Positions 12,558 to 58,279 are shown, counted from the stretch's first letter. The stretch: DNA of 64,000 nucleotides from an uncultured Gemmatimonadales bacterium (GCA_963741945.1 CAVUKA010000005.1:522557-586556); one strand, 5' to 3'. The notes: generated by a model from the sequence alone, not told the origin. A program made the numbers and translations.

Positions 12558-15188
<2,631 letters not shown>

Positions 15189-19544: not shown

Positions 19545-20966
19545 ATGGGTTCAGGTCGGGCGGGGCGGGCGTGGACGGAGCGAGGGACGGCGATGGTCCT
19601 CCTGTCGCTCCTGCTGGCGGCAGGGTGCGGCGGACGGGCGGGGCCGACGCCGGCCGCCCCCGAGCCCGCCGAGAGCCCCGAGCCGGTCACACGGGAGATG
19701 GCGCTGGCGGTCTTCGACTCGGCGTGGAGCCGCGTGCTCCATACCTATTACGACACCACGTTCCACGGCCTGGACTGGCGGGCGATCGGAGACGAGTACC
19801 GCCCGGCGGCCGCGACTGCGGGGACGGCCGACTCCCTCCGAGCTGTGATCCAGCGGATGGTCGAGCGGCTGGGCGACAGCCACTTCCTCGTCATCCCCGC
19901 CGCGGCGGCAGACGCGCTGAATCCGGACTCGGCCGCCGGGAAGCGCGGGAACCCGGGCGATGTGGGGCTGGAGACGCGTGTAGTGGATGGCCGTGTGATC
20001 ACCTGGCGGGTGGACCCCGGGATGCCGGGGGCCGAGGCCGGGGTCCGGCCCGGGTGGGTGGTGCAGGAGATCGACTCCGTGCCTGCGTCCAGGCTCCTGT
20101 CCTTCCTCGAGCCGCTGTCGGAGCAGCGCCGGCTCGCCGAGGCGAGGGTCGCGGTCGCCGCGGACGCTCGCCTGGCCGGTCGCGTGGGCGACACCGTCGT
20201 CGTCCGGCTGACGGACGGAAGCGGGAAGCAGAGGACCGTGGCCCTGGTGCCCCGCCCGCTGCGTGGGACGCCGGTGCGTTTCGGCAACCTCCCCACCATG
20301 TTCGCCTCCCTGGAGGCGGCGCCCATGCCCGCGGGCGATGGCTGCGCGGGGGTGATCCGATTCAGCGTCTGGATGACCGCCATCCTCCCCGCCTTCGATG
20401 ATGCCGTGCAGTCGCTGCGTCACTGCCGGGGGTTCGTGCTGGACCTGCGCGGCAACCCGGGCGGTGTCGCCGGAATGGTCATGGGCGTGTCGGGGTACTT
20501 CATGGACGAGCAGAAGGAGCTCGGGGTGATGACCACGCGCCAGGGACAGATGCACATCCGGTCCATGCCGCGCACGGTGACCCGGGAGGGAGCGGCCATG
20601 CGGCCCTTTGCCGGCCCGCTGGCGCTGCTGGTGGACGGCGAGACCATGTCCACCAGCGAGATCTTCGCCGCCGGGCTGCAGGAGGTGGGCCGGGCGAGGG
20701 TGTTCGGGGACACGACGGGGGGGCAGGCGCTGCCCGCGGTGCTGGTCCGGCTGCCGAACCGCGACCTGCTGATGCACCCGATCGCCAACCTGGTCGGCCC
20801 GGACGGGAAGCGGGTGGAAGGGCGCGGCGTGATCCCGGACGTGGTCACACCGCTGACACGGAAGGACCTGCTGGCAGGGAAGGACGCGGCGCTGGACGCA
20901 GCGCTGCGCTGGATCGAGGACACAGGCACCACAGAGGCGAGCGCGCAGGCGCCCGCCCACCCATGA
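19545..20966 (+). CDS. S41 family peptidase (lipoprotein-like N-terminus)
   Basis: LLLAAGC lipobox. FVLDLRGNPGG and LVDGETMSTSEIFA (Ser region) motifs. An alternative start is ATG 19593. Confidence 0.8.
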   Translation: MGSGRAGRAWTERGTAMVLLSLLLAAGCGGRAGPTPAAPEPAESPEPVTREMALAVFDSAWSRVLHTYYDTTFHGLDWRAIGDEYRPAAATAGTADSLRAVIQRMVERLGDSHFLVIPAAAADALNPDSAAGKRGNPGDVGLETRVVDGRVITWRVDPGMPGAEAGVRPGWVVQEIDSVPASRLLSFLEPLSEQRRLAEARVAVAADARLAGRVGDTVVVRLTDGSGKQRTVALVPRPLRGTPVRFGNLPTMFASLEAAPMPAGDGCAGVIRFSVWMTAILPAFDDAVQSLRHCRGFVLDLRGNPGGVAGMVMGVSGYFMDEQKELGVMTTRQGQMHIRSMPRTVTREGAAMRPFAGPLALLVDGETMSTSEIFAAGLQEVGRARVFGDTTGGQALPAVLVRLPNRDLLMHPIANLVGPDGKRVEGRGVIPDVVTPLTRKDLLAGKDAALDAALRWIEDTGTTEASAQAPAHP

Positions 20967-41442: not shown

Positions 41443-43827
41443 ATGTCGCACCTGCTGCTTGCGTTAGCCATAGCCATTCCGGCCGGGGGCGTTGCGCCCG
41501 GTGCGGGCGCTGAGCCGCCGTCGGCCTGGCCGGCGCTCCAGGCCCCGGCGGACAGCGCCGAGTACCGGGGGGACCGGGGTGAGCTGTCCGTCCGGGTGCC
41601 TCGCCTGCCGGAAGCCGGTATCCGCGTGGACGGTCGGCTGGACGAGGCCGCGTGGGGGGAGGCCGCGCGGCTGACCGGCTTCACGCAGTACCAGCCGGTG
41701 GAGGGGATCGCGGCGTCGCAGCCCACGGAAGTGCGGGTGCTGTACACGTCGGAAGCCATGTACTTCGGCATCCGCGCGTACGACTCGGACCCGTCGGCCA
41801 TCCGGGCCACGCTGACGGACCGGGATGGCGGCGTGGAGTCGGATGACTGGGTCCGGATCATCCTGGACACGTTCCACGACAACACGCAGGCGTACGTCTT
41901 CTATGTCAATCCGCTGGGAATCCAGGCGGACGGGCTGTGGGTGGAGGGTGCGGAGCAGCATTTCGGCCCGCCGATCGACTTCAACCCGGACTTCCTGTGG
42001 GAATCGGCGGGCGAGGTCACGGCCGACGGCTGGGTGGCGGAGATCCGGATCCCGTACGTGGGGCTCCGCTTCCGCGACCTGGCGGAGCAGAGCTGGGGCA
42101 TCAACGTGGCGCGCTCGATCCAGCGGTCGGAGTACCAGTCGTCGTGGGCACCGCTGACGCAGGACGCGGCGAACCAGCTGGAGCTCAACGGCGCGCTGGT
42201 GGGGCTGACGGGGCTGCACCCTCGTCGCCTGGTGGAGATCAACCCGGTGGCCACGGGGAAGCGAACGGGGGAGCGCGTGGCGACGGGCGCGTTCGAGCGC
42301 GACTCCTTCTCGCCGGAGCTCGGCGTGAACGCGCGGCTGGGGCTGAGCAGCAACCTGATCCTCGACGCCACGGTGAATCCCGACTTCTCGCAGGTGGAGG
42401 CGGACGCGGACCAGGTGTCGGTGAACGAGCGGTTCGCCCTCTACTTCCCCGAGAAGCGGCCGTTCTTCCTGGATGGCACGGAAGTCTTCAACACGCCCCA
42501 GCAGCTGGTCTACACGCGAGCGATCGTCGACCCGGTGGGCGGGGCGAAGCTCACGGGGAAGACGGGCGCGTTCAAGATGGGCTACCTGGGGGCACTGGAC
42601 CGGAGCCCGGTCACGTTCGGGAGCGCGTCGCAGGACGCCCTCTTCAACCTCGTGCGGGTCCGCGGGGACCTGGGCTCGGGGTCCAGCGTGGGCGCGCTGT
42701 ACACGGACCGGACGCTCCTGGGCGGCGAGGGGTTCAACCGCGTGGGCTCGCTCGACAGCCGCCTCATCCTGGCCGGGCGCTACACGCTCACGGCGCAGCT
42801 CGCGGGCGCCTGGTCGAAGGAGGAAGACGACGCCGGGACCCCGTCCACCCTGTTCGGCCCCCTCTTCTACGCCCAGCTCGCGCGCAGCGGCTGGGGGTTG
42901 TCCTGGGATGTCTCCGCCGAGGACGTGCACCCGGACTTCCGCGCCCGCAGCGGGTTCATCCGCCGCATCGGAGACGCCCGGCTGGCGGCCGAGGCCCAGT
43001 ACACGTTCCACAACCAGGCGGGCGCGTTCCTGGAGGACTGGAGCCCGCAGGTCGAGGCGGAAGCCTACTTCGATCACGAGGACCTGTGGGCGGGCCGCCG
43101 CTACCAGGAGGCCAGCGTGCAGGCGGGCCTCGACATCAGCCTGCGCGGTCCGAACGGCGGCCAGGGCGAGGTGTCGTACGGCTACTTCGCGTTCGATCCG
43201 GCCGACTACGCCGGCTACGAGCGTCCGGCCGCGGGCGCCGGCTACATCCCCATGGAAGCGCGCGCTCCCCTGTCCGGCCTCCTCCGCCTCCACGCCTTCG
43301 GCCGGTCGCAGCCCGTGTCCTGGCTCTCGCTCCACCTGGACGGCTCCTACGGCGAGGTGCCCATCTACGCGGAAGCCTCCCGCGGCGTGGAGCTGGGGCT
43401 CGAGCCGAGCGCCAACATCAGTTTCCGCAACGGGCTCTCCGCCGACCTCTCCTTCACCTACTCCCGCATCCGCCGGGCTGGCGGCGGCGGCCGCTTCAGC
43501 GTGGCCCAGATCCCGCGCGTCAAGATCCGGTATCAGCTCACGCGTGCGCTCTTCACGCGCGCCATCCTGCAGTACAACCTGGAGGAGCGCGATGCCCTGC
43601 GCTGGTCGGACGGGCTGCCGCTCCGCGTCAATGGCGACATCAGCACCCCCGACGACCGTGGCGAAGTCCAGTACGACCTCCTCGTGGGCTACGAGCCGTC
43701 GCCGGGCACCGTGGTCTACGCCGGCTGGACCCGTACGCGCGTGGGGCCGAACACCTACCGGTTCGGCCGGCTCGAGCCCTCGGCCGAAGGGCTGTTCCTG
43801 AAAGTCAGCTACCTCTTCCGCCTCTGA
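41443..43827 (+). CDS. DUF5916 / CBM9-like domain outer-membrane protein
   Basis: IRVDGRLDEAAWGEAARLTGFTQYQP...YFGIRAYD...DWVRIILDTFHD (CBM9-like N-terminus), then a long beta-rich region ending LFLKVSYLFRL. Confidence 0.75.
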   Translation: MSHLLLALAIAIPAGGVAPGAGAEPPSAWPALQAPADSAEYRGDRGELSVRVPRLPEAGIRVDGRLDEAAWGEAARLTGFTQYQPVEGIAASQPTEVRVLYTSEAMYFGIRAYDSDPSAIRATLTDRDGGVESDDWVRIILDTFHDNTQAYVFYVNPLGIQADGLWVEGAEQHFGPPIDFNPDFLWESAGEVTADGWVAEIRIPYVGLRFRDLAEQSWGINVARSIQRSEYQSSWAPLTQDAANQLELNGALVGLTGLHPRRLVEINPVATGKRTGERVATGAFERDSFSPELGVNARLGLSSNLILDATVNPDFSQVEADADQVSVNERFALYFPEKRPFFLDGTEVFNTPQQLVYTRAIVDPVGGAKLTGKTGAFKMGYLGALDRSPVTFGSASQDALFNLVRVRGDLGSGSSVGALYTDRTLLGGEGFNRVGSLDSRLILAGRYTLTAQLAGAWSKEEDDAGTPSTLFGPLFYAQLARSGWGLSWDVSAEDVHPDFRARSGFIRRIGDARLAAEAQYTFHNQAGAFLEDWSPQVEAEAYFDHEDLWAGRRYQEASVQAGLDISLRGPNGGQGEVSYGYFAFDPADYAGYERPAAGAGYIPMEARAPLSGLLRLHAFGRSQPVSWLSLHLDGSYGEVPIYAEASRGVELGLEPSANISFRNGLSADLSFTYSRIRRAGGGGRFSVAQIPRVKIRYQLTRALFTRAILQYNLEERDALRWSDGLPLRVNGDISTPDDRGEVQYDLLVGYEPSPGTVVYAGWTRTRVGPNTYRFGRLEPSAEGLFLKVSYLFRL

Positions 43828-44141: not shown

Positions 44142-45299
44142 ATGAACCAGGCCTCGGGAACGCAGGGGAGCGCAGGGGCTCGGCCTCACGGGGGCGGCCC
44201 GGCGCTGGCGGTGCTCGCACTCCAGGGGGGCGCCCCGTTCTGGCGGAAGCTGCAGCCGGACTGGCCGATGGTCGCGATGGAAGTGACCATCGTGCTGCTC
44301 ATGCTGACGCTGGTCGGGTTCCTCATTGCCGCGCTGCTGCTGCGGCGGCGGAACAACCGCAAGGCGGAGCACTGGGGGTCCCTCGAGCGAACCTGGAGCT
44401 CGCTGCTCCGCGCCGTGTGCGACGGCTCGGCGGACAGCGCGGCGATCCGCTCGACGATCGCGCCGCGCGAAGAGCTGTTCTTCGTCGACTTCCTCTACAA
44501 GCGGGCGCTTCAGACCGACGACCCGGAGGACCGGGCCACGCTTTCACGGCTGGCGACGCCGTACCTGCCGCGCATCGCGTCGCGCACCCGCGGGGGCGAC
44601 CCCGAGCGGCGGGCCCGGGCGGTGAAAACGCTGGCGGAGCTGGGCGGGAAGAGCCACGGGCACCTGCTGGTGGCGGCGCTCGATGACCCCTCGCCGCTGG
44701 TGGCCATGAGCGCGGCCCGCGGACTGGCGCAGTCGGCGGGGGCGAGCAGCGTGCGCGAGATCGTGAGCCGCATCGGCCGTTTCAGCGACTGGAACCGCCG
44801 CTTTCTGCGGGCGACGCTCACGCAGCTCGGGCCGCCGGCGATCCCGGCGCTCCGCGACATCGTGCGCGAGCGGCCGCTGGCGCCCGGCGTTCGGGCGGTA
44901 TGCATGGACGCGCTGGCGGAGCTGGACGACCGCGGCGCCGCGGAGCTGGCGGAGCTGGCGCTGTGGACGGAAGAGGACGTGGACCTGCGCGCTGCGGCGC
45001 TCCGGCTGCTCCGGCGGTGCGGCGGGCCGGAGCACGCGGAAGTGGTGCGCCCGCTGTGCGCGCACGAGGACCCGGTGATCCGGGCGCAGGCGGTGGGGAC
45101 GCTGGCGACGATCGGAGAGGAGAGGGACATGGCCGTGCTCGAAAGAGCGGTGCACGACCCGTCCGCGTGGGTGGCGCTGCACGCGGCGCGGGGGCTGAAG
45201 TCCCGGGGCCGTTCGGGGTTCCTGCGGCGCGCCATGGAATCGGAGGACGCGTCGGCCCCGGCCGGGCTCGCCCTCCAGGTGCTGCTGGAGGAGGGCTGA
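44142..45299 (+). CDS. membrane-anchored HEAT-repeat protein
   Basis: One TM helix (VTIVLLMLTLVGFLIAALLL, followed by RRRNNRK), then repeated HEAT_2-like units (DPSPLVAMSAARGLAQ, DPVIRAQAVGTLATIG, DPSAWVALHAARGLK). Start uncertain (44070, 44142 or later). Confidence 0.7.
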   Translation: MNQASGTQGSAGARPHGGGPALAVLALQGGAPFWRKLQPDWPMVAMEVTIVLLMLTLVGFLIAALLLRRRNNRKAEHWGSLERTWSSLLRAVCDGSADSAAIRSTIAPREELFFVDFLYKRALQTDDPEDRATLSRLATPYLPRIASRTRGGDPERRARAVKTLAELGGKSHGHLLVAALDDPSPLVAMSAARGLAQSAGASSVREIVSRIGRFSDWNRRFLRATLTQLGPPAIPALRDIVRERPLAPGVRAVCMDALAELDDRGAAELAELALWTEEDVDLRAAALRLLRRCGGPEHAEVVRPLCAHEDPVIRAQAVGTLATIGEERDMAVLERAVHDPSAWVALHAARGLKSRGRSGFLRRAMESEDASAPAGLALQVLLEEG

Positions 45300-45300
45300 C

Positions 45301-46851
45301 ATGGGCGCGCACATCCTGCTGCTGGCGCTGATCGTCCTGAACGTGGTGGTGTTCGGGTACTTCCTGATCCTTAACGGCTACTACCTGGTCACCAGCCTCA
45401 CGTCCTTCCGCGCGCTGCGGCGCTACGCCCGGCGGCTCAACTCGCTGGACATCGAGGACATCATGCAGGCGGGTGGCGCGCCGCCCGTGTCGCTGATGGT
45501 GCCGGCGTACAACGAGTCGGTGGGGATCGCGGACTCCGTCCGCTCGCTCCTGGACCTGCGCTACCCGGACTACGAGATCCTGGTCATCAACGACGGCTCC
45601 ACCAATGACACCCTCGACGTTCTGCGGAGCGCGTTCGACCTGCGCCCGTCCGCGCGCGTCCCGACGGCGGAGCTCGGGCACGGCAAGGTCCGCGGGCTCT
45701 ATCGCAGCCGCAGCCACCCGTTCCTCTGGGTGATCGACAAGGAGAACGGTGGCAAGGCGGACGCCCTGAACGTGGCGCTCGACTACTGCCAGGCGCCGTT
45801 CTTCTGCTCGCTCGACGCGGACAGCGCGCTCGAGCGGGATGCGCTGCTCCGGCTGATCCGCCCGTTCCTGGAGAACGCGAACACCGTGGCGGCCGGCGGC
45901 ATCGTCCGGGTGGCCAACGGCTCGACGTTCGAGGATGGCAGGGTGGTGGACATCCGCCTGCCCCGGAAGCTCCTGCCGCAGCTGCAGGTGGTGGAGTACC
46001 TGCGCGCTTTCCTGGCCGGGCGCATGGGGTGGTCCAGCCTCAACGTCATGCTCATCGTCTCGGGCGCGTTCGGCATGTTCCGCCGCGCCGCCGTGGTGGA
46101 CGTGGGCGGCTACGCAAGCGACACGGTGGGCGAGGACATGGAGCTGACGCTCCGGCTCCACCGCCGCTTCCGCGAGGCGGGCGAGCCGTACGAGATCGCG
46201 TTCGTCCCCGACCCGGTGGCGTGGACGGAAGTCCCCGAGCGCCTGGGCGACCTGGGCCGCCAGCGCGACCGGTGGCAGCGCGGGCTGATCCAGAGCCTGG
46301 CCAAGCACCGGAAGATGCTCTTCCGCCCCAAGTACGGACGCATCGGCATGGTGGCCTTCCCCTACTTCTGGTTCATGGAAGGCTTCGGCCCGGTGGTCGA
46401 GCTGGTGGGCTACGTCGCATTCATCACCGCCGTCCTCCTCGGCTGGGCGTCCACCACGTACGTGGCCGCCTTCCTCATCGTGGCCGTGATCTTCGGCGTC
46501 CTGCTCTCCGTGGCCGCCGTGGCGCTCGAGGAGCTCGTGTTCCGGCGCTACCAGCACCCGGCGGACTTCAGGCGCATGCTGGTCCTCTCCGTCATCGAGA
46601 GCTTCGGCTTCCGCCAGCTGCTCACGTTGTGGCGCTTCCGCGGCGTGCTCTCCGCATTCCTGGGCAGCCAGGAGTGGGGCCACAAGCAGCGGCACGGCGT
46701 CATCCATCACCGCGAGGACCGCGAGGACCGCGAAGCGGGCGATGTGGTCGGGGAGCGGGACGGGCGCGCGCAGGATGAAGCACACGAGGAGAGTGGAGGC
46801 CGCGGCGTCCGGCCGGTGGAGCCGCTCGTGGCCGTGGAGCGATCGGCATGA
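45301..46851 (+). CDS. processive family-2 glycosyltransferase (PgaC/IcaA/NodC-like polysaccharide synthase)
   Basis: Starts 1 nt after the HEAT gene stop. N-terminal TM helices, VPAYNE, INDGSTNDT, DADS, GEDMELT and QRDRWQRG (QxxRW), then C-terminal TM helices. Confidence 0.85.
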   Translation: MGAHILLLALIVLNVVVFGYFLILNGYYLVTSLTSFRALRRYARRLNSLDIEDIMQAGGAPPVSLMVPAYNESVGIADSVRSLLDLRYPDYEILVINDGSTNDTLDVLRSAFDLRPSARVPTAELGHGKVRGLYRSRSHPFLWVIDKENGGKADALNVALDYCQAPFFCSLDADSALERDALLRLIRPFLENANTVAAGGIVRVANGSTFEDGRVVDIRLPRKLLPQLQVVEYLRAFLAGRMGWSSLNVMLIVSGAFGMFRRAAVVDVGGYASDTVGEDMELTLRLHRRFREAGEPYEIAFVPDPVAWTEVPERLGDLGRQRDRWQRGLIQSLAKHRKMLFRPKYGRIGMVAFPYFWFMEGFGPVVELVGYVAFITAVLLGWASTTYVAAFLIVAVIFGVLLSVAAVALEELVFRRYQHPADFRRMLVLSVIESFGFRQLLTLWRFRGVLSAFLGSQEWGHKQRHGVIHHREDREDREAGDVVGERDGRAQDEAHEESGGRGVRPVEPLVAVERSA

Positions 46852-48503
46852 GAACGCGAGCGTGGATGCGCGAACGAGCGATGCGCGAAGGAGCTGCAGC
46901 CGTGAAGAAGCTTGTCCTGGCCGCCTGCTTCCTGGCCGTGGCGGCCCCCGCCACCGGGCAGGTCGGGGACTCGGCCAACACCGCCTGGATCCGCGGCGAC
47001 GTGCAGGCCGCCGCGCGGCTGTACGAGCAGCGCCTGGCGCAGGATTCCAGCGACATCAGCGCGCTGCACCGGCTGGCGCTGGCGAAAGCGTGGAACCGGC
47101 AGTTCGACGAGAGCCTGCCCCTGTTCGAGCGCCTGCTCCGCATGGACCCGGGCAACACGGAAGTTCGCCTCCACGAGGCCAACGCCCTGGCCTGGGCGGG
47201 GCGGCTGGACGACGCCCGCCGCCAGGCGGAAGCGGTGCTGCGGGAGCAGCCGGGTGACACGGCGGCCATCTCGGCCCTCGCCCGCTTCAGCGGGTGGGCC
47301 GGGCGCTACGAGGACTCCCGCCGCTACTACCGCCAGGTGCTGCGGCTGGACCCGGACAACGTGGAAGCGGCGAAAGGGCTCGCCCGCGTCGCGGCGTGGA
47401 GCGGACACCTGCGTGAAAGCGAGCGCCGCTGGCGCGAGGTGCTCGCCGCACAGCCCGGCGACGTGGACGCGCTGGTGGGGCTCGCGGCCACGCTCCGCTG
47501 GCAGGGGCGGACTTCCGCGGGGCTCGACGTCCTGGACCGGGCGGAGCGGCTGGCGCCCGAGAATGCCGACGTGGAAGCGCAGCGCCGCTGGCTGCTCGCC
47601 GCGGCGGGGCCGAGCCTGGCCCCCGGCTACCTGTACGAGAGCGACTCCGACGGCAACCGGGCGGAGACGTTCCGCCTGGCCGGCTCGTGGCTGGTGGCGC
47701 GCCGCGTGGGGCTGCGCTTCACGGCCGACACCCGCGACTTCACCCAGGAGACGGGGCTCGCCCGCGAGAGCTCGGCGCGCCGCGCCGACCTGGTGCTCAG
47801 CCTGGGGCTCGGCGCCGGCTGGACCCTCTCGGGGGGCGGCGGGGTGAGGACCGGGGACGGGGCCACGCAGGAGTCCATGGGGCTCTGGCAGGCGGCCCTG
47901 TCGTCGCCCACGTACCTCCCGGTGAGCGCGTCGCTGAGCGCGAGCCGCAGCGCGTTCGACTACACGGCGCAGCTGGCGCAGAACAACGTGGCGGTGGAGG
48001 AGGCGTCGCTGGGCCTGAGCTCGGTGCTGCTGGCGCGGCGCCTGCGCCTGAGCGCGCGCGGAGGCATCGCCCGCTTCCTGGCCGCCGAGGACAACACCCG
48101 CTGGCTGGCCAATGCCCGGGTCTCGTTCCATCCCGTCCCCGTCTTCTCGGTGGGCGTGAACGGCCGCGGCTTCGGCTTCGAGAAGGACCTGGCGGAAGGC
48201 TACTGGGACCCGACGTTCTACGGCCTCGTCGAAGTGCCGCTCGGGCTTTCGCTGGAAACGGACCACTTCTTCGGCGGCGCCGAAGTGGCGCCCGGCTACC
48301 AGACCGTGGACCACCCGGTCATCCAGGTGGACCACGGCGCGCTCCGGGCCGATGCCCGCATCGGATTCCGCTTCGCTCCCGGCCGGCAGATCGCCATCTC
48401 GGGCACCGTGGCCAACTCCGGCGTCCAGAGAGTCTCCCCCGTCCCGGACGCGCAGTACGAGTACCGGGCCGTGAACGTCATGCTCAGCTGGTCGCTCCGC
48501 TGA
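46848..48503 (+). CDS. TPR-repeat plus beta-rich C-terminal domain protein (PgaA/BcsC-like export candidate)
   Basis: ATGA overlap with the GT2 stop. Signal peptide. About 6 TPR-like units (LDPGN, LDPDNVEA ...). The C-terminal half has alternating beta-strand patterns. Confidence 0.7.
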   Translation: MRTRAWMRERAMREGAAAVKKLVLAACFLAVAAPATGQVGDSANTAWIRGDVQAAARLYEQRLAQDSSDISALHRLALAKAWNRQFDESLPLFERLLRMDPGNTEVRLHEANALAWAGRLDDARRQAEAVLREQPGDTAAISALARFSGWAGRYEDSRRYYRQVLRLDPDNVEAAKGLARVAAWSGHLRESERRWREVLAAQPGDVDALVGLAATLRWQGRTSAGLDVLDRAERLAPENADVEAQRRWLLAAAGPSLAPGYLYESDSDGNRAETFRLAGSWLVARRVGLRFTADTRDFTQETGLARESSARRADLVLSLGLGAGWTLSGGGGVRTGDGATQESMGLWQAALSSPTYLPVSASLSASRSAFDYTAQLAQNNVAVEEASLGLSSVLLARRLRLSARGGIARFLAAEDNTRWLANARVSFHPVPVFSVGVNGRGFGFEKDLAEGYWDPTFYGLVEVPLGLSLETDHFFGGAEVAPGYQTVDHPVIQVDHGALRADARIGFRFAPGRQIAISGTVANSGVQRVSPVPDAQYEYRAVNVMLSWSLR

Positions 48504-48525
48504 GGACGTGAGGGAAAGGGCGACG

Positions 48526-51208
48526 ATGATGACCGGCAGGATCCACCTCCGCGTGGCCCGGCGCACCGTCTGGCTGACGGCCACGGTCCTCGTCCTCGGC
48601 TCCATGATGCTGGTGAACGCCGGTGCGGGCGCCCAGTACGTCTGCCCGCGCGCCGCCGACCCGGAAGTCCAGGCTGGCTGGGCCGCGTACCGGCAGGGCG
48701 ACATGGCCGCCGCGCGCGACCACTTCGACGAAGCCGTGGGCCGCTGCCCCCGTCACGTGGGCGGACGGACCGGGCTGGCCTACGTCGAGCTACGGAGCGG
48801 CAACACCGTCGCCGCCAGCCGCCTGTTCGACGCCGTCCTGTCCGGGCACCCGAACGCCGTCGACGCGCTGGTGGGGCGGGGCATCGTGGCCTGGCGCCAG
48901 GACGAGCTCGCGCTGGTGGGCGACCGTGTTCCAGCGCGTGCGACGACTCGATCCGGGCAACGCCGAAGCCGACCGCTACCTCGGGCTCCTGCAGGCCCGC
49001 GAGCCCGCCCCCCGTCCCGCCCCGCCCCGCCCGCCGCTGACGCGGCCGGACACCCTCGAGCTGCCGGCCCGCGCCTTCGGCGACCACCTCGAAGTGCGCA
49101 CCGACACCGGCTGGGCCCGTCTCTACATCAAGGCCATCGACCTCGGCGCGGCGCTCCCCGGCCACTTCGCCACCCAGTTCCCGGACTCCGCCACCTACGC
49201 CCGCTGGCTGGACGGGATGGCGGCCACGGGAGCCAACGCCGTGCGCGTGTACACGCGCCACCCGCCCGCGTTCTACGAAGCGCTCGCCGACCACGACGCG
49301 CGCCACCCCGACCACCCGCTCTGGCTCATGCAGGGGGTGTGGGCGGACCTGCCGCCGGACGGCACCCGCTACGCCGATCCGGCCTGGCAGGGCGAGTTCC
49401 TCGCCGACGTCGGCCGCGCCATCGACATCATCCACGGCCGCGCCGACATCGCGCCGAAGCCCGGCATGGCCTCCGGCCACTACGCCGCCGACGTGTCGCG
49501 CTGGACGCTGGCCATCATCCTGGGGCGCGAGTGGGAGGCCACGTCGGTGATCGGCTTCGACCGGCTGCGCCCCGACTTCACCGCCTGGGCCGGCACCTAC
49601 GCCACCGCCACCGGCGCGTCGCCCATGGAAGCGTGGCTCACCATGGTCGTGGACTCCACCGTGGCCATCGAGACGCGCAGGTACAACACGCAGCGGCCGG
49701 TCTCCTACACCAACTGGCCCACCACCGACCCGCTGCGCCACCCGACGGAAGCAACCAGCCTCGAGGAAGCCGCCATCCTCCGCGGCCTGGGTGACGGCAT
49801 CGACCTCGGACAGGTGATGCTGGAAGGCGAGGACGCGGTCACCATCGACCCGGGGCACACGCGCGCCACCGGCCGCTTCCCGGCCGGGTTCTTCGCCACC
49901 TACCACGTCTACCCGTACTACCCGGACTTCATGACCCGCGAGCCGGCGTACCTGCACGCCGTCTCGCCCTGGGGCCCCTCCAACTACTTCGGCTACCTCA
50001 CCGCCCTGAAGCGCTACCACCGCGACATCCCCGTCTTCATCGGCGAGTACGGGCTGCCCCCGAGCATCGGCGTGTCCCACGTCGCCCCCTTCGGCTGGCA
50101 CCACGGCGGCCTCACCGAGGCGCGGGCCGCCGCGGGCACCGCACGCCTCACCCGCGAGATCGCCGCCGCGGGCATGGCCGGGGGCGGCGTGTTCGAGTGG
50201 ATCGACGAGTGGTTCAAGAAGACGTGGGTGACCCAGCAGTTCGAGTCGCCGCCGGAACGGGACCGCATGTGGTACAACCGCCTCGACTCCGAGGAGCACT
50301 TCGGCCTCAACGCCGTGGAGCCGGAGCCCCGCATCCGCGGCGAGACCCTCGCCGAGCGGGTGAACGGCGGCTGGCTCATGGTGCGGCCGGCATACGACGA
50401 TTCCACCCGGGGCACCCTCCGCCTCCTGGCCGACGAGGCCTACCTCCGCGTGCTCTACGTCGCGCCGCGGCGCGTCGACGAGGTCCTGCTCGGCTTCGAC
50501 GTCATCGACCCCCGCCGCGGCGACAGCCGCTGGCCCGGCAAGGTGGGCCCCCGCCTGCCCGTGGGCCTCGAGGTCGTCCTGCGCGCCCGCGGCGACACCG
50601 CCCGCATCCTGAAGGACACCCACTCGCAGCCGATCCGGATCCGCGAGCTGCCCGCCGCGCCCATCGATTCCGGACCCGACATCGCGTCGCCGCCGCCAGG
50701 GTTCTTCCGCGGCCGATTCGTCACGGTCGGCAGGCTGCGCATCCACTCCCGCCTCAACGACGACGGCGTCTACGAACCGCCTCGCCTGGTCTTCTCGCGA
50801 CGCATGTTCGCCCGCGACTCCACCGAGTTCGCCGCCCTCGGCTACGACGCCGGCCTGCTGCCGAACGGCCCCGGGCCCGACGGCCTGTGGCAGACCAATG
50901 GCACCGCCTGGGAGTTCCGCATCCCCTGGCAGCTCCTGGACGTGGGCGACCCCAGCCAGCTCCTCGTGCTCCAGGACACGCTCCAGCGCTGGCGCGGCGG
51001 CCCCCTGGAGACCGTGCCCGTGGACGCCATCCGCGTCCTGGCCGCCGCCCGCACCCGCTCCGGCGACTGGCTCCAGCTCCCGGCCTCCAACCGCCTCGAG
51101 GACGTCGCCTCCTTCTCCTGGGCCACCTGGGAAGAGCCGAAGTGGCAGGCCAGGCCCCGGCCGGTCCTCGATTCCCTGCGCGAGGCGTGGAGCGGGATAC
51201 CGGAATGA
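48526..51208 (+). pseudogene. frameshifted CDS: signal peptide + TPR + clan GH-A-like TIM-barrel glycosidase domain
   Basis: Frame 1 (48526 to about 48927) encodes a signal peptide and TPR sequence. Frame 2 (about 48926 to 51208) continues the same TPR (VFQRVRRLDPGNAEADRYLG) and a TIM-barrel-like domain (VRVYTRHPP, ILGREWE, FIGEYG, FEWIDEWFKKTW). After the junction, frame 1 becomes R/P-rich nonsense. Confidence 0.65.
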
Positions 51209-51406
51209 CGGAGCCGTTGCGGGAACGCTGCGCACCGTAGACGGGGTTCGATGAGCGGAGGTTCATCTCCGGCTGGGGTGGCATCTCCACCTCCCGAACA
51301 CCAATCTTTAGTGGGCACCGTTTGGGCCGCGGTTCGCGCAGCGTCGAGTATTCCCAACGTCCACTTTAGCGAAAGACATTGCAAAATCCTACTCAATGAC
51401 ACCCGG

Positions 51407-52375
51407 TTATCGGACCGCATTTACGGCCAGAGACTGGTCAGATATCGCTCGGGGATGATGGCTGGAAACGAAGACCGCGATGGGCACCAGCGCCAGCGGG
51501 AGATAGGGGATCAAAACGTACGGCGATGCGAATACTCCCGCCACGAGGACGCAGGCCACTTGCAGCCGTGGCGAACGATGCCGCAGCATGACACCCACCA
51601 CTACGGGAGCCAGCACTCCCAGGAACACCGGGATCCATGGAAGGCCGAGCCAATCGCCAATAGGGGTGGTGGGCGAAAGGTTGAGACCCGCCCACCCTTG
51701 CGCCACGTGCGGCAACACCTCGGTGAGCCAATGAAGCGACGCGCGAACGAACCCGCCCGGTGAAAGTGCCGCCATTCCCACGAGGACCGACCCGGCCAAG
51801 GCGGCTGCGGCGCCAGCAAACGCGCGGCGGTCCCGAGCTGCGGCAAAGGCGAGGGGAAAAACAGCATACGGCTTGACCACGGCGACGAGGGCAAGGAGTG
51901 CGCCGCGTCGTGCGCCGGAAAGAGCCACACCCCATCCCGCCAGCGCCCAAAGCACCGGGTCTACATTGGCGAAACCCAGGCCCACGGCTGCACCGGGGAA
52001 CGCCCCCGCGATGAATACCCAGGCGGCCCATCCTGATGGCGTGGCCCGCCCATGGGCGATCCTGGCCAGTGCCGCGGCAAAGGCCCAGAACGAGGCGAAC
52101 AGCAGCACGGACCAGCACCGGCTGAAAGTCACGAAGGACATCCGCGGAGCCAGGGACAGCGCAGGGGCGAGCACCGGGGGATAGAGGTACCAGAAGTCCC
52201 CGTGTTCGACGACCTTGCCCTTCGACATGGGCGGATACAGCGGCTCGCCGTCCTGGATCCTCCGTTGCGCCAGCCAGTTGCTGGGGACGTCCCGATCGCT
52301 CCAGGACGGATTCATCATTTCCCGCGGCAGCATGACAACGGCGGTTGCCGCGGTGAATGCCCACGCTACCATCAT
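51407..52375 (-). CDS. DUF2029/GT87-like polytopic membrane protein (copy A)
   Basis: Start set at ATG 52375 (uncertain). LYPP...FWYLYPPVLAPAL motif and 8 or more TM helices. Paralog of 57128-58273 (FSRCWSVLLFASFWAFAAALARIAHGR vs FQRAWFLVVAFSFWAFAALLARIARGR; VKPYAV in both). Confidence 0.65.
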   Translation of the reverse strand: MMVAWAFTAATAVVMLPREMMNPSWSDRDVPSNWLAQRRIQDGEPLYPPMSKGKVVEHGDFWYLYPPVLAPALSLAPRMSFVTFSRCWSVLLFASFWAFAAALARIAHGRATPSGWAAWVFIAGAFPGAAVGLGFANVDPVLWALAGWGVALSGARRGALLALVAVVKPYAVFPLAFAAARDRRAFAGAAAALAGSVLVGMAALSPGGFVRASLHWLTEVLPHVAQGWAGLNLSPTTPIGDWLGLPWIPVFLGVLAPVVVGVMLRHRSPRLQVACVLVAGVFASPYVLIPYLPLALVPIAVFVSSHHPRAISDQSLAVNAVR

Positions 52376-52479
52376 GGCCCGGCGGGCGAGCCATTCCGTG
52401 TTCAGCTTCAACTTGACTCCAGTGACCAAACGAGAAGGCTCCCGCTCGCGGATCGCGGGTGCGGACGCTCCATGGCGGA

Positions 52480-54027
52480 TCAGGTGCCGGCGCGGACCAG
52501 CAGCACAGCCACCGAATCCTCGTGGGCCACCCGCCACTGTGGTGTTTCCTTGAGGGCTTCCACCAGCGGCGCATCCGGCCGGACCAGCACCAGGGAAAAG
52601 CCGTAGTGATCCATCAATTCTTTCCAGCCCCGTTCCGCGCTGACGATCGTGCCGTACTCCTTCACCAGATCGTCGCCGAAGAAGTCTGCCATGCTGTCGA
52701 CGAACAGGCGCTGCCCCGGCCAGGCATACAGCACGTACCCACCCCAGCTGTACTGGCTGAACAGGCGTCCGCCCAGACGCGCCTCCCTGGCATATCGCAC
52801 GGCCGCGGCCGGAAAGACATCCGGTGAGGGCTGGTCGGGTACGATCGTGATCCGCTGCGTCCTTCCGTCCGTCAGCAGCAGCGCCACCAGGAGCGTCCCG
52901 ACGCCGAGTCCCAGCCGCCAGCCCCGCGTGTCGGAGCGTGCGAACTCCTCGCGCATCCGCCCCACCAGGCCGGCGTGCAGCTGCCGCACCAAGGGCGTGA
53001 GCGCGCGCGCCATCACGGGGAGCGCGAAGAGGGCGAACATCGCCGTGTTGCGACGGGCGGAGAGCGCCCCCATGAACGCCGCGGCGGTGACCAGGAGCGG
53101 CCGCCACCCGGGCCACTCCTTCTGCGCCGCCAGGCCGAGCACCAGGAGGCCGCAAACGGCCATGAACGGCAGTCCCTCGGGGGAGAAGGCGATGAGCGCC
53201 TGGAACTCGTTCACCTGCGCCACGGTCTGGCTCCCCATCCACGTCATGGCGTGCACGTGCAGCGCCCAGCCGAACGGGTTGAGGAGCGACGCCGCGAGCG
53301 CGACGACGAAAGGGGCGGCAGACGTGCGCAGCGCCGACAGCCGGGGACGTCCGGCCCTGATCTCGTCGATCCATTCCCCCGCTCCCCATGCTCCGACCAT
53401 CACGGCCCCGTAAAGGAATCCGGGATGCAGGTTGGCCCAGAACGCGAACAGGAGCGAAGTCCAAAGCAGCCGGCGGCGCGACAGCAGGGCGTGAGGCAGG
53501 GCGGCGAGCGCGAGATAGGAGAACAGGTGGGGCCGCGCGATCCAGTGCGACTGGTTCAGCACGACCGCCGCGGCGCCCGTGACCAGCGCCAGCCAGGGGT
53601 CGCCGCCATCCCGCCGCACGTATGCAACCACCAGCGCCACGGCCCCGCCGATGAGCAGCGCGGCCAGCGCCACCACGCCGGCGAATCCAGCCGCCGCATG
53701 GGCCCCGGCGTATGCCACCTGGCTGAGCCATTCATAGGCGAGGAACGGCTCTCCGGCCCGGGAGAAGGAGAACGGGTCCGCGAACCTCGGCCCATGCCCG
53801 AGGATGTAGCGGCCGATGAGGATGTGCCGGAGGAGGTCGCCGTCACCATTGACCAGCCGCCCGTGGGCCAGGAATGCCGCTGAAGCCGAGGTCAGGGCGA
53901 ACGCCATACCTACCACGGATGCCTGCTGGGGCTCACGGGCCGGCACAGCGGCACCGGCCGGCGGTTGCGAAACGGGTGAAGCCTCCTGGCCCGCCCGGGC
54001 GGTTTCCGTCGCGCCGGGGCCGCTCAC
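52480..54027 (-). CDS. large polytopic membrane protein with C-terminal soluble domain, GT-C-like architecture (copy B)
   Basis: GTG 54027 in a GTGA overlap with the GT2 stop. VNGDGDLLRHILIGRYILGHGPRFADPFSF..FLAYEWLSQ, WANLHPGFLYG and YSWGGYVLYAWPGQRLFVDSMADFFG. Close paralog of 55608-57131. Confidence 0.75.
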   Translation of the reverse strand: MSGPGATETARAGQEASPVSQPPAGAAVPAREPQQASVVGMAFALTSASAAFLAHGRLVNGDGDLLRHILIGRYILGHGPRFADPFSFSRAGEPFLAYEWLSQVAYAGAHAAAGFAGVVALAALLIGGAVALVVAYVRRDGGDPWLALVTGAAAVVLNQSHWIARPHLFSYLALAALPHALLSRRRLLWTSLLFAFWANLHPGFLYGAVMVGAWGAGEWIDEIRAGRPRLSALRTSAAPFVVALAASLLNPFGWALHVHAMTWMGSQTVAQVNEFQALIAFSPEGLPFMAVCGLLVLGLAAQKEWPGWRPLLVTAAAFMGALSARRNTAMFALFALPVMARALTPLVRQLHAGLVGRMREEFARSDTRGWRLGLGVGTLLVALLLTDGRTQRITIVPDQPSPDVFPAAAVRYAREARLGGRLFSQYSWGGYVLYAWPGQRLFVDSMADFFGDDLVKEYGTIVSAERGWKELMDHYGFSLVLVRPDAPLVEALKETPQWRVAHEDSVAVLLVRAGT

Positions 54028-54848
54028 GGCTCCCTTCCCGCCGTCATCGGCTCCGTTCCTTTCGATGCGGGCCGGCCGGTTGGCCCGGCCACCAGGCGGC
54101 GCCCGGGCCGCTGCACCCACAGGCGAAGAAGAAAAAGGAAAGCGCGGGCGCCCGCCAGCATGGAGACCTTCGACTCGCCCACGTCGCGCCAGGCGGGAAG
54201 CGGCACCTCTACGATCCTGTCGATCCCGCTGTCCCCCCACCCCTCCTGGAGGCGGCGCAGCAGCTCGATGTCGAACGCCCAGCGCGATTTGAACGGCCGC
54301 TGGAGTGCGTGCTCCAGGGCCGATGACTTCCGCAGGAGCTTGGCACCGCACTGTGTGTCGTATACGGGCACGCCGAGCGCCAGCGACGCCAGTGTGCCAT
54401 AGGCACGCCCGGCCAGGTGGCGCAGGCCGGACCGCTGGATCTCGCGGCCCAGCATTCGAACGCGCGCGCCCATGACCACGTCCACCCCACGGCGCTCATC
54501 CAGGAGTTGATCGAACGCTTCGATCATGTCCAGCGGCGTGGCGAGATCAGCGTCCCAGTAGCCCACGCGCGACGCGCCCGCGTCGAGCGCCGTCCTGAGG
54601 CCGGCCCGAACCGCCTCTGCCTTCCCCACGTTCTGCTCCAGCGCCAGCACGCGGCAGCCGCCGGCACGGAGGCGCCCGATCCCGACGGCAAGGGCGTCCA
54701 GCGACCGGCGCGTGCCATCGGTGCTTCCGTCGTCCACGAAGATGAACGTGGGCGCGCGGGAGCCAGCGGCCGCCGCCAGGAATGCGGACGCATCCAGGCG
54801 AAGCGCCTCGTTGTAGCACGGCACGACCACCCAAGCATCACTCGCCAT
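54024..54848 (-). CDS. family-2 glycosyltransferase, polyprenyl/dolichyl-phosphate hexose synthase-like
   Basis: VVVPCYNE, FVDDGSTDGT, YWDADL (DxD), YDTQCGAKLL and RWAFDIELL resemble Alg5/GtrB-type lipid-phosphate sugar synthases. Confidence 0.8.
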   Translation of the reverse strand: MASDAWVVVPCYNEALRLDASAFLAAAAGSRAPTFIFVDDGSTDGTRRSLDALAVGIGRLRAGGCRVLALEQNVGKAEAVRAGLRTALDAGASRVGYWDADLATPLDMIEAFDQLLDERRGVDVVMGARVRMLGREIQRSGLRHLAGRAYGTLASLALGVPVYDTQCGAKLLRKSSALEHALQRPFKSRWAFDIELLRRLQEGWGDSGIDRIVEVPLPAWRDVGESKVSMLAGARAFLFLLRLWVQRPGRRLVAGPTGRPASKGTEPMTAGREP

Positions 54849-55611
54849 CGGCCTGGCTCCGCCTCAGAATCGCCAACAGACTCAGCCCATGCCCCGGGAG
54901 ATCGCGGCGTCCCCGCTTCAGCGCATCCACGAGCCCTGGAACCTCGCCCGTGAACACCCGTTCCAGGGCGCGGTTCACCGGCGCCCATGGCAGCCCCATA
55001 TCGCTTCCTTCGCGCCCCGTGCCGCTCCCCCGCCACGCCCCGAGACGCCGGACCATCCGCGCCAGCGGGTACAGCCGGCGATTGAATGGCGCCAGCAGGC
55101 GGACTTCTGCCGGGACGCCCGACCAGGCGTCCCAGAGCATCTCGCGGGTGTATCGCCGGTAGTGTCCGTACACCTCGTCGTGGGGGCTCCAGAGCCAGGG
55201 CCCGAACGGCACGGTCATCAGCAGGTGCGCCTCCGGGCGCATGCTGCCGATCAACCGCTCCAGGAAAGCGTGGTCATGCTCGACGTGCTCCAGGACATCG
55301 CAGAGGAGGACCAGGTCGGCCCGGCCGATCATTTCCCTGCCGGCCTCCGGAGCGGCGCCTGTTTCGAAGCTGACGCCCGGATGGGCCCGTCGCGCCAGCT
55401 GGATTGCCGTGGGCGAGCTGTCGATCCCGTGGCGGTCGTGCCTCTCGGGGAACGCACCGATATCCGCGCCCGTGCCGCACCCGACATCCACCACCACACC
55501 CCGTTCGGGCAACAGCCGCGTCCCGAGTTCCAGGATGGCCCTGCGCCGCCCCCGGAACCACCAGTGGCGCGCCTCGAGCGCGTGGTGCGTGCTGAACAGC
55601 TGTTCCTTCAT
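54838..55611 (-). CDS. class I SAM-dependent methyltransferase
   Basis: ATG 55611 in an ATGA overlap with the upstream stop. HWWFRGRR, VVDVGCGTG and LLCDVLEHVE motifs. 11-nt overlap with the GT2 start. Confidence 0.85.
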   Translation of the reverse strand: MKEQLFSTHHALEARHWWFRGRRRAILELGTRLLPERGVVVDVGCGTGADIGAFPERHDRHGIDSSPTAIQLARRAHPGVSFETGAAPEAGREMIGRADLVLLCDVLEHVEHDHAFLERLIGSMRPEAHLLMTVPFGPWLWSPHDEVYGHYRRYTREMLWDAWSGVPAEVRLLAPFNRRLYPLARMVRRLGAWRGSGTGREGSDMGLPWAPVNRALERVFTGEVPGLVDALKRGRRDLPGHGLSLLAILRRSQADGE

Positions 55612-57131
55612 CCGCCCTCCCCGTTCTTCGCCAGCAGGACCGCCACGCCGTCCTCGTGCACAACGCGCCAGCCGTCGGCCCCGCGGAGCGCCTCCACGAT
55701 GGGCGTTCCCGGCGGGAAAAGCACGACGGAGATCCGGTTCCGGGCCAGCAGATTGCGCCAGCCGGGCCGGGCGTCCCTCAGCACGACGTAGTCGCCGATG
55801 AGCTCCGGGCCGAAGAAGTCGGCCATGCTGTCCACGAACACGCGCTGCCCCGGCCACGCGTAGAGGACGTAGCCGCCCCATGTGTACTCGCTGATCAGGC
55901 GACCGTCCAGTTGTTGACTCATGGCCACCCGGACCGCCGCCTCGGGAAACACGTGGGGCGAGAACCGGTCCGGCAGCAGCCCGGGTCCCCCGACCCGGCC
56001 CACCACGAGAAGCAGTGCCAGACCGGCCGCGGCCATCGAACCATGGCGCGATCCTGGTCGATCCGATCGGGCGAACTCCGCGCGCATCCGGCCCAGCAGC
56101 CAGTGCGGGAGCGCCGCCATGGCGGGCGCCAGCGCGCGGGCCGCGAGGGGGAGCGCGAACAACGGAAGCAGCGTCGTGTACCGGCGTCCCATGAACGATA
56201 CGGCCACCGCAATGGTGAACGGGAGCACCGCCGGCCACGGCCTGGCAGGCCGGGCGAGGGCGAGTCCGGCGGCGGCCGTTCCGGCAACAGCAAGGAACAC
56301 CAGTCCGTTGATAGACAACAGGGGGAGCGGCAGGAACTCCGAGACCCCCATGGCCGAGCCGCCTCCGCCGAGCGCAAGCGCGTGGACGTGGAGCGCCGCG
56401 CCGAAGGGGTTCAGCAGCGTGGCGGCGGAAGCGACCAGCACGGGCACGCCCCACCGCACGACGGCGCGCCCGGTCCCATCCCCGGAGCGGACGTCCTCCA
56501 CGGCCATGCCCGACGACCATGCGCCGAGCATCACCAGTCCATAGAGAAACCCCGGGTGGAGGTTGGCCCACAGCGCGAACAACACCCCGAGCCACAGCGT
56601 CCGACGCGGGGACTCGATTGCGTACAGCAGCGCCGCGAGACCAAGGAAGCTGAACAGGTGGGGGCGCGCCAGCCAGTGCGGGTACGTCAGCACCACGGCA
56701 GCCGTCCCGACCATGAACGCGAGCCACGGGTCCCCCGCAGCCCGGACCCAGCGCACCACCAGCGCGAAGGATGTGGCCAGGAGCAGCGACGAGAGGACGA
56801 CCACGCCAGCGAGCCCCAGCCAGCCATGGACGGCCGCAAGCAACGCCTGACTCAGCCATTCGTACGCCAGAAACGGGTCTCCCCCTCGCGTGAATGAAAA
56901 CGGATCCGCGAAGCGCGGCCCGTGCGCCAGGATATACCGGCCGGTCACGAGGTGACGGGCCAGGTCACCGTCCCCATTCACCAGCATTCCGCCGAAGCCC
57001 AGCGGGATCACGAGCGCCCAGAGAGCGAACGTGAGATCGACCACCGACGCGCGGCCGCGCTCGCCATGGGCCGCGCCCAGCTCGGCACCGCCACGCGTGG
57101 ACACGGCGGCCTCCACCGGTCCGTGCATCAC
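55608..57131 (-). CDS. large polytopic membrane protein, GT-C-like architecture (copy B')
   Basis: GTG 57131 (GTGA overlap) or ATG 57128. VNGDGDLARHLVTGRYILAHGPRFADPFSF..FLAYEWLSQ, WANLHPGFLYG and YTWGGYVLYAWPGQRVFVDSMADFFG. Confidence 0.8.
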   Translation of the reverse strand: MMHGPVEAAVSTRGGAELGAAHGERGRASVVDLTFALWALVIPLGFGGMLVNGDGDLARHLVTGRYILAHGPRFADPFSFTRGGDPFLAYEWLSQALLAAVHGWLGLAGVVVLSSLLLATSFALVVRWVRAAGDPWLAFMVGTAAVVLTYPHWLARPHLFSFLGLAALLYAIESPRRTLWLGVLFALWANLHPGFLYGLVMLGAWSSGMAVEDVRSGDGTGRAVVRWGVPVLVASAATLLNPFGAALHVHALALGGGGSAMGVSEFLPLPLLSINGLVFLAVAGTAAAGLALARPARPWPAVLPFTIAVAVSFMGRRYTTLLPLFALPLAARALAPAMAALPHWLLGRMRAEFARSDRPGSRHGSMAAAGLALLLVVGRVGGPGLLPDRFSPHVFPEAAVRVAMSQQLDGRLISEYTWGGYVLYAWPGQRVFVDSMADFFGPELIGDYVVLRDARPGWRNLLARNRISVVLFPPGTPIVEALRGADGWRVVHEDGVAVLLAKNGEGG

Positions 57132-58273
57132 GGTCCTGCAGAGGCGCTTGCAGTGGCACCGACCGCAGCCTCAGCCGCGGCCGCGCTCCCCCCGCCCGTC
57201 GCCCGTCCCTTCTTCCGCCCGACCAGCACGGCCGCGAACACCAGCCCGATGGCCAGATATCCGTTCCAGCAGAGCGGCGAGAACAGCAGCGACGCCAGCA
57301 ATACCGCGGTCAGGTGCAGCCGGGTGTCCCACCGCCGCGTGAGCCACCAGGCGCCGAATGGCGCCGCCACGGAGGCGGCAGTCAACCACACCCTCCACCC
57401 CGGCGACAGCGGCCCTGACTCGTAGTGCGAGACGCCCGTCCAGCGGGCCACCCGCAGCACCAGGAACGATAGCGACCAGTTCGTGGACAGGAACGCGCCC
57501 TGGCCGAGCGCCGGCGGGATCGCGGTGAACCACTGCTGCGACACGCGGAAAAGCCGCGCCGGACCCAGTGCGGCGACACTCACCAGCACCACGCCCACCG
57601 CGGCCCAGACGGCTCCTCGCACCACCCGCCACCGCTCCCGCCACACCGCCGCGATCACCGCCCATACGGCGTACGGTTTCACCGCCGTCGTGAGGACCAG
57701 CCCCGCCCCGCGGAACCGCGGATACGCGATGGCCCCGGCGAAGAACACCCACAGAAGGGGATCGATGTTGAACAGCAGGAAGAACAGCAGGGCTCCCGGC
57801 ATCAGCACAACCAGGCCATGCCAAAAGAAGAATCCTCCGACGCTCCACCGCCCCCGTGCAATCCGCGCCAGGAGCGCCGCGAACGCCCAGAAGGAGAACG
57901 CCACCACGAGGAACCACGCTCGCTGGAAGGTGACCAGCTCCGTGCGGGGCAGCAGTGCCACCACGGACGCCAGGGGAGGCAGGTACGGGCTGTTGTCCAT
58001 CGGGTATCCGGTCGAGCCGGACCCCCCCATCACATCCGGTCCGAACCCCGGCATCCGCCGGTACAGCTCCTCCGCTCCTGCACGTACCCGCTCCGACTGG
58101 TACCATACCTGTGGCGAGTCCACATTGTCCGGACCGGGGTGGCGGATGCTGTCCGCCAGCCACCACGCTTGAAAGGGGATGATCAGGGCGCCGACCAACA
58201 GAAAAGGAAGGCGCACATAAAATGAAGGCGTTCTGGACCTGCTTCCGTTGACGGTGCCTGCACGGATGATCAT
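57128..58273 (-). CDS. DUF2029/GT87-like polytopic membrane protein (copy A')
   Basis: 381 aa, multi-TM. SPYLPPLASVVALLP motif. Paralog of 51407-52375. Confidence 0.75.
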   Translation of the reverse strand: MIIRAGTVNGSRSRTPSFYVRLPFLLVGALIIPFQAWWLADSIRHPGPDNVDSPQVWYQSERVRAGAEELYRRMPGFGPDVMGGSGSTGYPMDNSPYLPPLASVVALLPRTELVTFQRAWFLVVAFSFWAFAALLARIARGRWSVGGFFFWHGLVVLMPGALLFFLLFNIDPLLWVFFAGAIAYPRFRGAGLVLTTAVKPYAVWAVIAAVWRERWRVVRGAVWAAVGVVLVSVAALGPARLFRVSQQWFTAIPPALGQGAFLSTNWSLSFLVLRVARWTGVSHYESGPLSPGWRVWLTAASVAAPFGAWWLTRRWDTRLHLTAVLLASLLFSPLCWNGYLAIGLVFAAVLVGRKKGRATGGGSAAAAEAAVGATASASAGP

Positions 58274-58279
58274 TGCCGG

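Follow-up and report, generated by a model that had tools for sequence, protein, structure and literature searches.

A probable synthase-dependent exopolysaccharide secretion locus of a previously uncharacterised type in Gemmatimonadota, with a HEAT-repeat protein encoded beside the synthase

Within a 64-kb stretch of DNA from an uncultured Gemmatimonadales bacterium (GCA_963741945.1, CAVUKA010000005.1:522557-586556; GC content ~70%), hereafter the window, four genes at positions 44142 to 51208 encode a membrane protein with HEAT repeats (gene 1), a family 2 glycosyltransferase (GT2; gene 2), a predicted outer-membrane porin with tetratricopeptide repeats (TPRs; gene 3) and a TIM-barrel protein resembling glycoside hydrolases (GHs; gene 4). 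We consider it likely that this locus is a synthase-dependent exopolysaccharide (EPS) secretion system of a type not previously characterised. Three components of such systems are found together here: a processive GT2, a TPR and barrel porin, and a polymer-cleaving enzyme, the last recognised at the level of fold only and encoded by a frameshifted gene. In the mechanism we propose, the PgaC-like GT2 would polymerise a beta-linked polymer from a nucleotide sugar and thread it through its own membrane channel. The single-pass HEAT protein would act as an obligate inner-membrane partner of the synthase, probably coupling it to a regulatory input, which in most relatives may be an adjoining response-regulator/GGDEF protein. 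The TPR-barrel protein would take up the polymer in the periplasm and export it across the outer membrane, and the TPR-tethered GH-A-like enzyme would trim or clear periplasmic polymer, as BcsZ, PslG, PelA and the C-terminal domain of PgaB do.

The four genes are co-directional and tightly linked. As the original prediction, made from the sequence of this stretch, had stated, the open reading frame (ORF) coordinates place genes 1 and 2 1 nt apart, give genes 2 and 3 a 4-nt ATGA overlap and leave 22 nt between gene 3 and the ATG at 48526. Together with an upstream gene for a DUF5916 protein they make up five closely packed genes on the plus strand, the last ending at 51208, with a third-position GC of 0.91 to 0.94. 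The sequence motifs quoted in that prediction (DADS, GEDMELT, QRDRWQRG, ILGREWE, FIGEYG and FEWIDEWF) are all found in the translations.

Gene 2 (45301..46851, plus strand) encodes a 516-aa protein whose best NCBIfam match is PgaC_IcaA (TIGR03937; 1e-42, 146.5 bits against a cut-off of 422.3), followed in order by an XrtG-associated glycosyltransferase, CelA and NodC. For CelA, two models reach 61 and 34 bits, with their cut-offs at 699 and 992. Pfam matches are to Glyco_tranf_2_3, Glycos_transf_2 and Glyco_trans_2_3. A phmmer alignment to BcsA from the PDB pairs NDG with DDG, LDADS with FDADH, IVSGA with FFCGS, GEDME with TEDAE and RQRDRW with QQRGRW, and runs on into the first C-terminal transmembrane (TM) helices of the synthase. 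Hydropathy places TM segments of gene 2 at residues 1-33 and 361-415. The family match, the motif alignment and the N- and C-terminal TM segments support the assignment of gene 2 to the processive membrane synthases, as had been claimed. Pfam finds no PilZ domain in gene 2 and no BcsB in the locus.

Immediately upstream, gene 1 (44142..45299, plus strand) encodes 385 aa, and its translation is identical to the deposited product P0223. It combines a HEAT-repeat domain (Pfam HEAT_2, 3e-20) with one TM helix at approximately residues 43-67, followed by the sequence RRRNNRK; by the positive-inside rule this arrangement predicts that the HEAT domain sits in the cytoplasm. The single-pass HEAT protein described directly upstream of the synthase is present, and the pairing is a general one: among the 36 family GT2 genes whose upstream sequence is long enough to tell, at least 35 directly follow a HEAT gene (33 recognised by a HEAT profile and two further by tblastn or Pfam). 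No PgaD- or BcsB-type partner is detected in the locus by Pfam or NCBIfam, again as predicted. We infer by analogy that the HEAT gene encodes the partner adjoining the synthase, in the place where known systems have PgaD, BcsB/BcsE, Alg44 or PelD.

Gene 3 (46848..48503, plus strand) is a 551-aa ORF; the deposited product, P0121, has 533 aa and is 18 residues shorter. Its N terminus is signal-peptide-like, and Pfam TPRs are confined to its N-terminal half. An AlphaFold2 (AF2) model built from a 40-sequence alignment, with a predicted local distance difference test (pLDDT) score of 92.6, shows helices over residues 35-253 (approximately seven TPRs) and strands over residues 256-549 that form a long antiparallel barrel. 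Foldseek ranks Escherichia coli BcsC (9b8a, 1e-17) first and the BcsC barrel (6tzk) next, and also matches PelBC (9h80, TM-score 0.68 on the target). The model bears out the proposed PgaA/BcsC/PelB layout and identifies the predicted protein as an outer-membrane export porin of the BcsC/PelB/PgaA type.

The catalytic part of gene 4 (48914..51208, plus strand, 764 aa translated) has no sequence match in Pfam, NCBIfam or the PDB, searched with the single sequence and, for the PDB, also with a profile of the catalytic part only. Assignment of both the GT2 and the hydrolase by family profiles had been suggested as a check; Pfam places the GT2, and neither Pfam nor NCBIfam places the barrel. The fold is clearer. 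An AF2 model (pLDDT 89.3, predicted TM-score 0.90) shows an eight-stranded alpha/beta barrel followed by beta-sandwich domains, and Foldseek returns GH157 first (1.8e-13), then GH2, GH5 and GH1, all of clan GH-A; GH153 structures are not among the top fold matches. Residues at positions characteristic of clan GH-A are conserved across phyla: an arginine after strand 2, Glu206 together with Glu208 after strand 4, and the tyrosine of YHxYPYYPDF after strand 6. Glu378 in EYG after strand 7 and the tryptophan of DEW after strand 8 are likewise conserved. In the model, the strand at residues 198-203 precedes Glu206 and Glu208, and the strand at 374-379 contains Glu378 (numbering of the fragment), making Glu206 and Glu378 the candidate catalytic pair. 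The claim of a TIM barrel with GH-A-like strand-end motifs thus holds at the level of fold, and the model supports a GH-A-like enzyme.

Gene 4 had been described as a single ORF from 48526 to 51208. The end at 51208, the signal peptide, the TPR and the barrel all stand; the single reading frame does not. The ORF in frame 1 (48526-49794) holds the signal peptide and TPR, and the ORF in frame 2 (48623-51208) holds the TIM-barrel part. Reading frames and a DNA alignment with the related loci L002 and L081 locate one extra base in the window within GCGCTGGTGGGCGACC, at approximately 48912-48921 on the plus strand, opposite a 1-base gap in both relatives; the window reads GGG where intact homologues imply GG. 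The N-terminal part (48526..48915, plus strand) has a hydrophobic N terminus and matches Pfam TPR_16/TPR_14. It is homologous to the N termini of full-length relatives, which are approximately 900 aa long and carry the N-terminal TPR. The deposited annotation holds only a 760-aa product, P0001, with neither signal peptide nor TPR. Because the homologues are in frame at this point and no slippery motif is seen, a programmed frameshift is ruled out, and the extra base reflects either a mistake in sequencing or a true inactivation of the gene.

To place the locus among its relatives, one genome per GTDB species was scanned for gene 4, giving 527 confirmed relatives, and synteny was read from the best 80 of these 527. 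All of the best 80 are from Gemmatimonadota except one contig binned as Fibrobacteraceae. The hydrolase and porin genes are adjacent in 58 of 62 loci, with the porin after the hydrolase; a family GT2 gene directly precedes this pair in 22 of the 58, and 20 of 32 loci have one no more than 10 kb away. In the window and its closest relative the two genes are swapped, the porin coming before the hydrolase. The predicted synteny is therefore kept as linkage across Gemmatimonadota, and its core is found in other phyla, with the usual order reversed relative to the window. In the closest relative, a second, convergent TPR-hydrolase paralogue (L001 12693-15380, minus strand) lies right after the first; none is present in the window. 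The exceptional contig (L038, CAZGEC010000002.1, 308 kb) carries a complete set of REC-GGDEF-REC, HEAT, GT2, hydrolase and porin genes, with identities to the window of 48-54% for the GT2 and hydrolase, 39% for the HEAT protein and 34% for the porin. Either the contig was misbinned or the system occurs in Fibrobacterota.

Gene fusions link the four components further. Of 1.84 billion cluster representatives searched, 150 clusters matched at E <= ~1e-130, nearly all of them over the catalytic region and with varying architectures; the search profile included TPR columns, which inflates counts at loose E-values. By Pfam and hydropathy, P0425 consists of a GT2, TM helices and then a GH domain, and P0444 of a signal or TM segment, an exported GH domain, a TM helix and then a cytoplasmic HEAT domain. 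P0378 (Bacteroidales), P0391 (Candidatus Eisenbacteria) and also P0372 join the GH domain to a CE4 deacetylase. Hydrolase and porin are united in P0328, a TPR-GH-TPR-porin protein, and L066 and L070 likewise hold the two in one long frame free of stops. Through these fusions all four genes of the window are connected to a single process, and the topology is fixed with the GH domain outside and the HEAT domain inside. Further, a cultured Firmicute, Gorillibacterium sp. (GCA_051594765.1; L089 3770-11195), encodes in consecutive genes Hpt-REC-GGDEF-REC, HEAT and GT2 proteins and a GH-like protein of 1064 aa that is anchored in the membrane; the locus has no porin. The absence of a porin there is expected if the porin serves outer-membrane export only.

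The gene context also points to a regulatory input. An Hpt-REC-GGDEF-REC or REC-GGDEF-REC gene lies directly upstream of the HEAT gene in approximately 19 of the fetched loci and in L085, L087 and L089; L087 has a REC-EAL gene as well. A response-regulator/GGDEF gene is found in the same position in a locus whose HEAT protein is labelled Fidelibacterota. A 395-aa gene after the porin in that locus was considered as a hydrolase homologue and rejected, as it has no similarity. Where the HEAT/GT2 pair is of the more divergent "type B", the neighbouring GGDEF domain keeps an intact GGEEF motif and an RxxD I-site. The GGDEF genes compared were those of L062 (13810-15255), L065 (13906-15282), L060 (13866-15221) and L087 (8319-10004) against those of L082 (4462-6933), L083 (2195-4615) and L085 (1296-3155). 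Judged by this context, second-messenger control is probable in most lineages.

Two lines of comparison hint at the chemistry of the polymer. The GT2 is nearest to PgaC/IcaA, and other phyla have fusions of the GH domain with CE4, the domain pairing of PgaB and PelA. Together these suggest that the polymer probably contains an N-acetylhexosamine, a hint by analogy rather than a determination. No CE4 domain is found by Pfam in the four genes, which likewise lack BcsB- and PgaD-type domains, and tblastn with CE4 domains finds none in the 64-kb window or in the Gemmatimonadota loci, in agreement with the earlier failure to recognise a CE4 motif. In L087, a 901-aa protein with a PIG-L (LmbE-type de-N-acetylase) domain and an NPCBM-associated domain is encoded at 17496-20201 (minus strand), ~5 kb from a HEAT-GT2 pair that has no nearby hydrolase or porin. 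This could be an alternative deacetylase or a coincidence.

Several observations weigh against the proposed system or against individual steps of it. With 146 bits, gene 2 falls far short of the 422 required of a PgaC equivalog, and its polymer may thus be something other than poly-N-acetylglucosamine (PNAG). A family GT2 gene is missing from the 10 kb around the hydrolase-porin pair in 12 of 32 loci. The GGDEF domains beside window-type HEAT genes are degenerate (RDDEF, REDEF, QEDEF, SQDVF and others), which suggests receptors or adaptors rather than cyclases. No GGDEF gene adjoins the HEAT gene in the window or in its closest relative, and neither a c-di-GMP riboswitch nor any other Rfam family is found in the window or upstream of the operon; second-messenger control of this particular locus is accordingly proposed by analogy only. 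An account in which the HEAT protein passively scaffolds or stabilises the synthase and senses no ligand, with control exerted through response-regulator phosphorylation or transcription, is a serious contender, though we hold it short of probable. It draws on this missing neighbour and on the degenerate domains, and also on the generic role of HEAT repeats as protein-protein interaction modules and on the HEAT alignment, in which no c-di-GMP-binding motif of a known kind is recognised. It fits less well with a GGDEF-HEAT-GT2 order that is tight and recurs in three phyla, at one locus with an EAL gene, and with the intact GGEEF and I-site of the type-B, Fidelibacterota-labelled and related loci. 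Gene 2 also shows similarity to NodC (5e-11, 42 bits in NCBIfam) and to Pfam Chitin_synth_2, and the product of the locus might be a glycan of the cell envelope or periplasm, or an oligosaccharide used in signalling, such as NodC-like chito-oligomers or periplasmic glucans, in place of a secreted matrix polysaccharide. We regard this as highly improbable, since the PgaC_IcaA score is well above that of NodC (146 against 42 bits) and the closely linked BcsC/PelB-type TPR-porin, in places even fused to the hydrolase, is a hallmark of outer-membrane export.

Two further points concern gene 4. The asparagine that precedes the acid/base glutamate in clan GH-A is absent, with G-R-E-W-E (GRE/WE) in place of NE, so that hydrolytic activity is putative. 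The barrel might instead bind polysaccharide as a chaperone, act as a transglycosylase or be some other modifying enzyme built on a GH-A scaffold; its sequence profiles match no known GH, and there is a precedent in the C-terminal barrel of PgaB, long regarded as a binding domain (PMC5933820). The conservation of the classical GH-A-position residues across phyla, and top fold matches that are all active retaining glycosidases, make this unlikely. The frameshift, in turn, may mean that the system is defective in this organism. If the insertion is real, the locus would be a decaying or inactive remnant with a hydrolase devoid of signal peptide and TPR; the system would then be impaired, or its polymer would go without periplasmic processing. 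Such a state would accord with the presence of the frameshift in the window and not in intact homologues, with the shortened 760-aa product in the deposited annotation and with the established finding that loss of the periplasmic hydrolase or lyase impairs production in known systems (BcsZ, AlgL, PelA). Against it, the other three genes are intact, and both halves of gene 4 keep full-length similarity and a high third-position GC (0.94 in the catalytic frame), so that any inactivation would be very recent. Moreover, with contigs of 651 kb and 1.36 Mb, this assembly and its siblings are probably long-read assemblies, which are prone to single-base indels in G runs. On balance we find a decayed locus possible but doubtful, and an EPS secretion system the better account of the four genes.

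The DUF5916 protein gene (41443..43827, plus strand) encodes 794 aa with a signal-peptide-like N terminus and gives a partial Pfam match to DUF5916 (5e-13). A DUF5916/CBM9-like gene had been predicted here; the first half of that description holds, and Pfam shows no sign of a CBM9-like domain. Of 32 related loci with full flanks, only 3 have a DUF5916 homologue no more than 10 kb away, and the closest relative (L001/L002) alone has it as the gene just before HEAT. This rules DUF5916 out as a general component of the system; it is a lineage-specific neighbour and probably not part of the core. Farther upstream lie ordinary chromosomal genes (TruD, CorA, M28 peptidase and ferritin). On the other side, a 170-aa plus-strand ORF at 51251-51763 was considered as a fifth gene and rejected: it has no family match and runs into the 3' end of a minus-strand gene (51407-52606) that Pfam supports as a GT87 membrane glycosyltransferase, so the ORF is probably spurious. 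This GT87 gene belongs to a convergent minus-strand cluster (51407-58279) with two GT87 genes, a small Dpm1-like GT2 (54024-54848) and an unassigned ORF of 507 aa, and a similar GT87/GT2 set follows the locus in L001. Elsewhere in the window, a 904-aa protein (12474-15188) with weak GH116/MGH1-like matches appears unrelated to the locus. Scans for sigma-70 promoters and intrinsic terminators were uninformative in DNA of 70% GC.

Gemmatimonadota are among the most abundant soil phyla, and to our knowledge little is known of how they build their matrix. The locus is a phylum-wide candidate for their exopolysaccharide machinery. Its HEAT domain offers a testable new type of synthase partner where known systems have a c-di-GMP receptor or a co-polymerase, and the conserved TIM-barrel family of gene 4 might turn out to be a new glycoside hydrolase family and supply a reagent for breaking down matrix. 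Genetics and biochemistry are within reach because a cultured Firmicute has this core too, which provides a tractable model. More speculatively, the HEAT protein may represent a new class of co-factor that senses c-di-GMP, or docks a response regulator of diguanylate-cyclase or pseudo-diguanylate-cyclase type, and so switches on the synthase; gene 4 may found a new GH family; and the whole may be a fifth major synthase-dependent EPS system, spread over Gemmatimonadota, other members of the Fibrobacteres-Chlorobi-Bacteroidetes (FCB) group and Firmicutes. We put this extended proposal forward tentatively, as something rather less than probable.

In the literature searched we found no characterised EPS operon with the same components, and no description of a HEAT-partnered GT2 or EPS synthase, of the gene 4 hydrolase family or of EPS systems in Gemmatimonadota; a 2020 census of synthase-dependent operons makes no mention of Gemmatimonadetes or HEAT. 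Among the systems nearest to it is PgaABCD of E. coli, with its counterpart IcaADBC of Staphylococcus. The GT2 has its best named match there, a small-to-medium membrane partner is encoded beside the synthase, the exporter combines TPRs and a barrel like PgaA, and the periplasmic TIM-barrel glycosidase-type domain, fused to CE4 in some relatives, resembles PgaB. Yet the synthase scores below the family cut-off, the partner is a HEAT protein with one TM helix where PgaD has two, the hydrolase is GH-A-like with its own TPR, and the locus has neither PgaD nor a PgaB-type CE4 and GH153 protein, with no deacetylase in the locus or window. Similarly, the GT2 aligns to the catalytic core of BcsA, the best fold match of gene 3 is BcsC, and BcsABCZ also includes a periplasmic glycosidase in the operon, whereas here the CelA models score below their cut-offs, PilZ and BcsB are missing, the hydrolase is GH-A-like and not GH8, and the porin has approximately 7 TPRs against approximately 19. 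Pel (PelA-G) shares the TPR-porin fold (9h80); the distant hydrolase-deacetylase fusions mirror PelA, and the degenerate GGDEF domains of window-type relatives recall PelD. Its synthase, PelF, is a GT4 and not a GT2, and PelC, PelD (GAF-GGDEF), PelE and PelG have no counterparts here. PslG (GH39) of the Pseudomonas Psl system is likewise a clan GH-A endoglycosidase in an EPS locus that acts on self-made polymer, but Psl is Wzx/Wzy-dependent, and PslG has no sequence similarity to gene 4 and no TPR. The c-di-GMP-dependent EPS operon ydaJKLMN of Bacillus subtilis, with a GGDEF-type regulator, a GT2, large membrane-anchored extracellular accessories, a hydrolase and no porin, follows the same logic as the Gorillibacterium version (PMC13274460); its receptor, YdaK, is a membrane protein with a degenerate GGDEF domain, no HEAT partner is described for it, and YdaJ is described as a separate glycosyl hydrolase. 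The overall logic of the locus is familiar; its partner protein and hydrolase family are unfamiliar.

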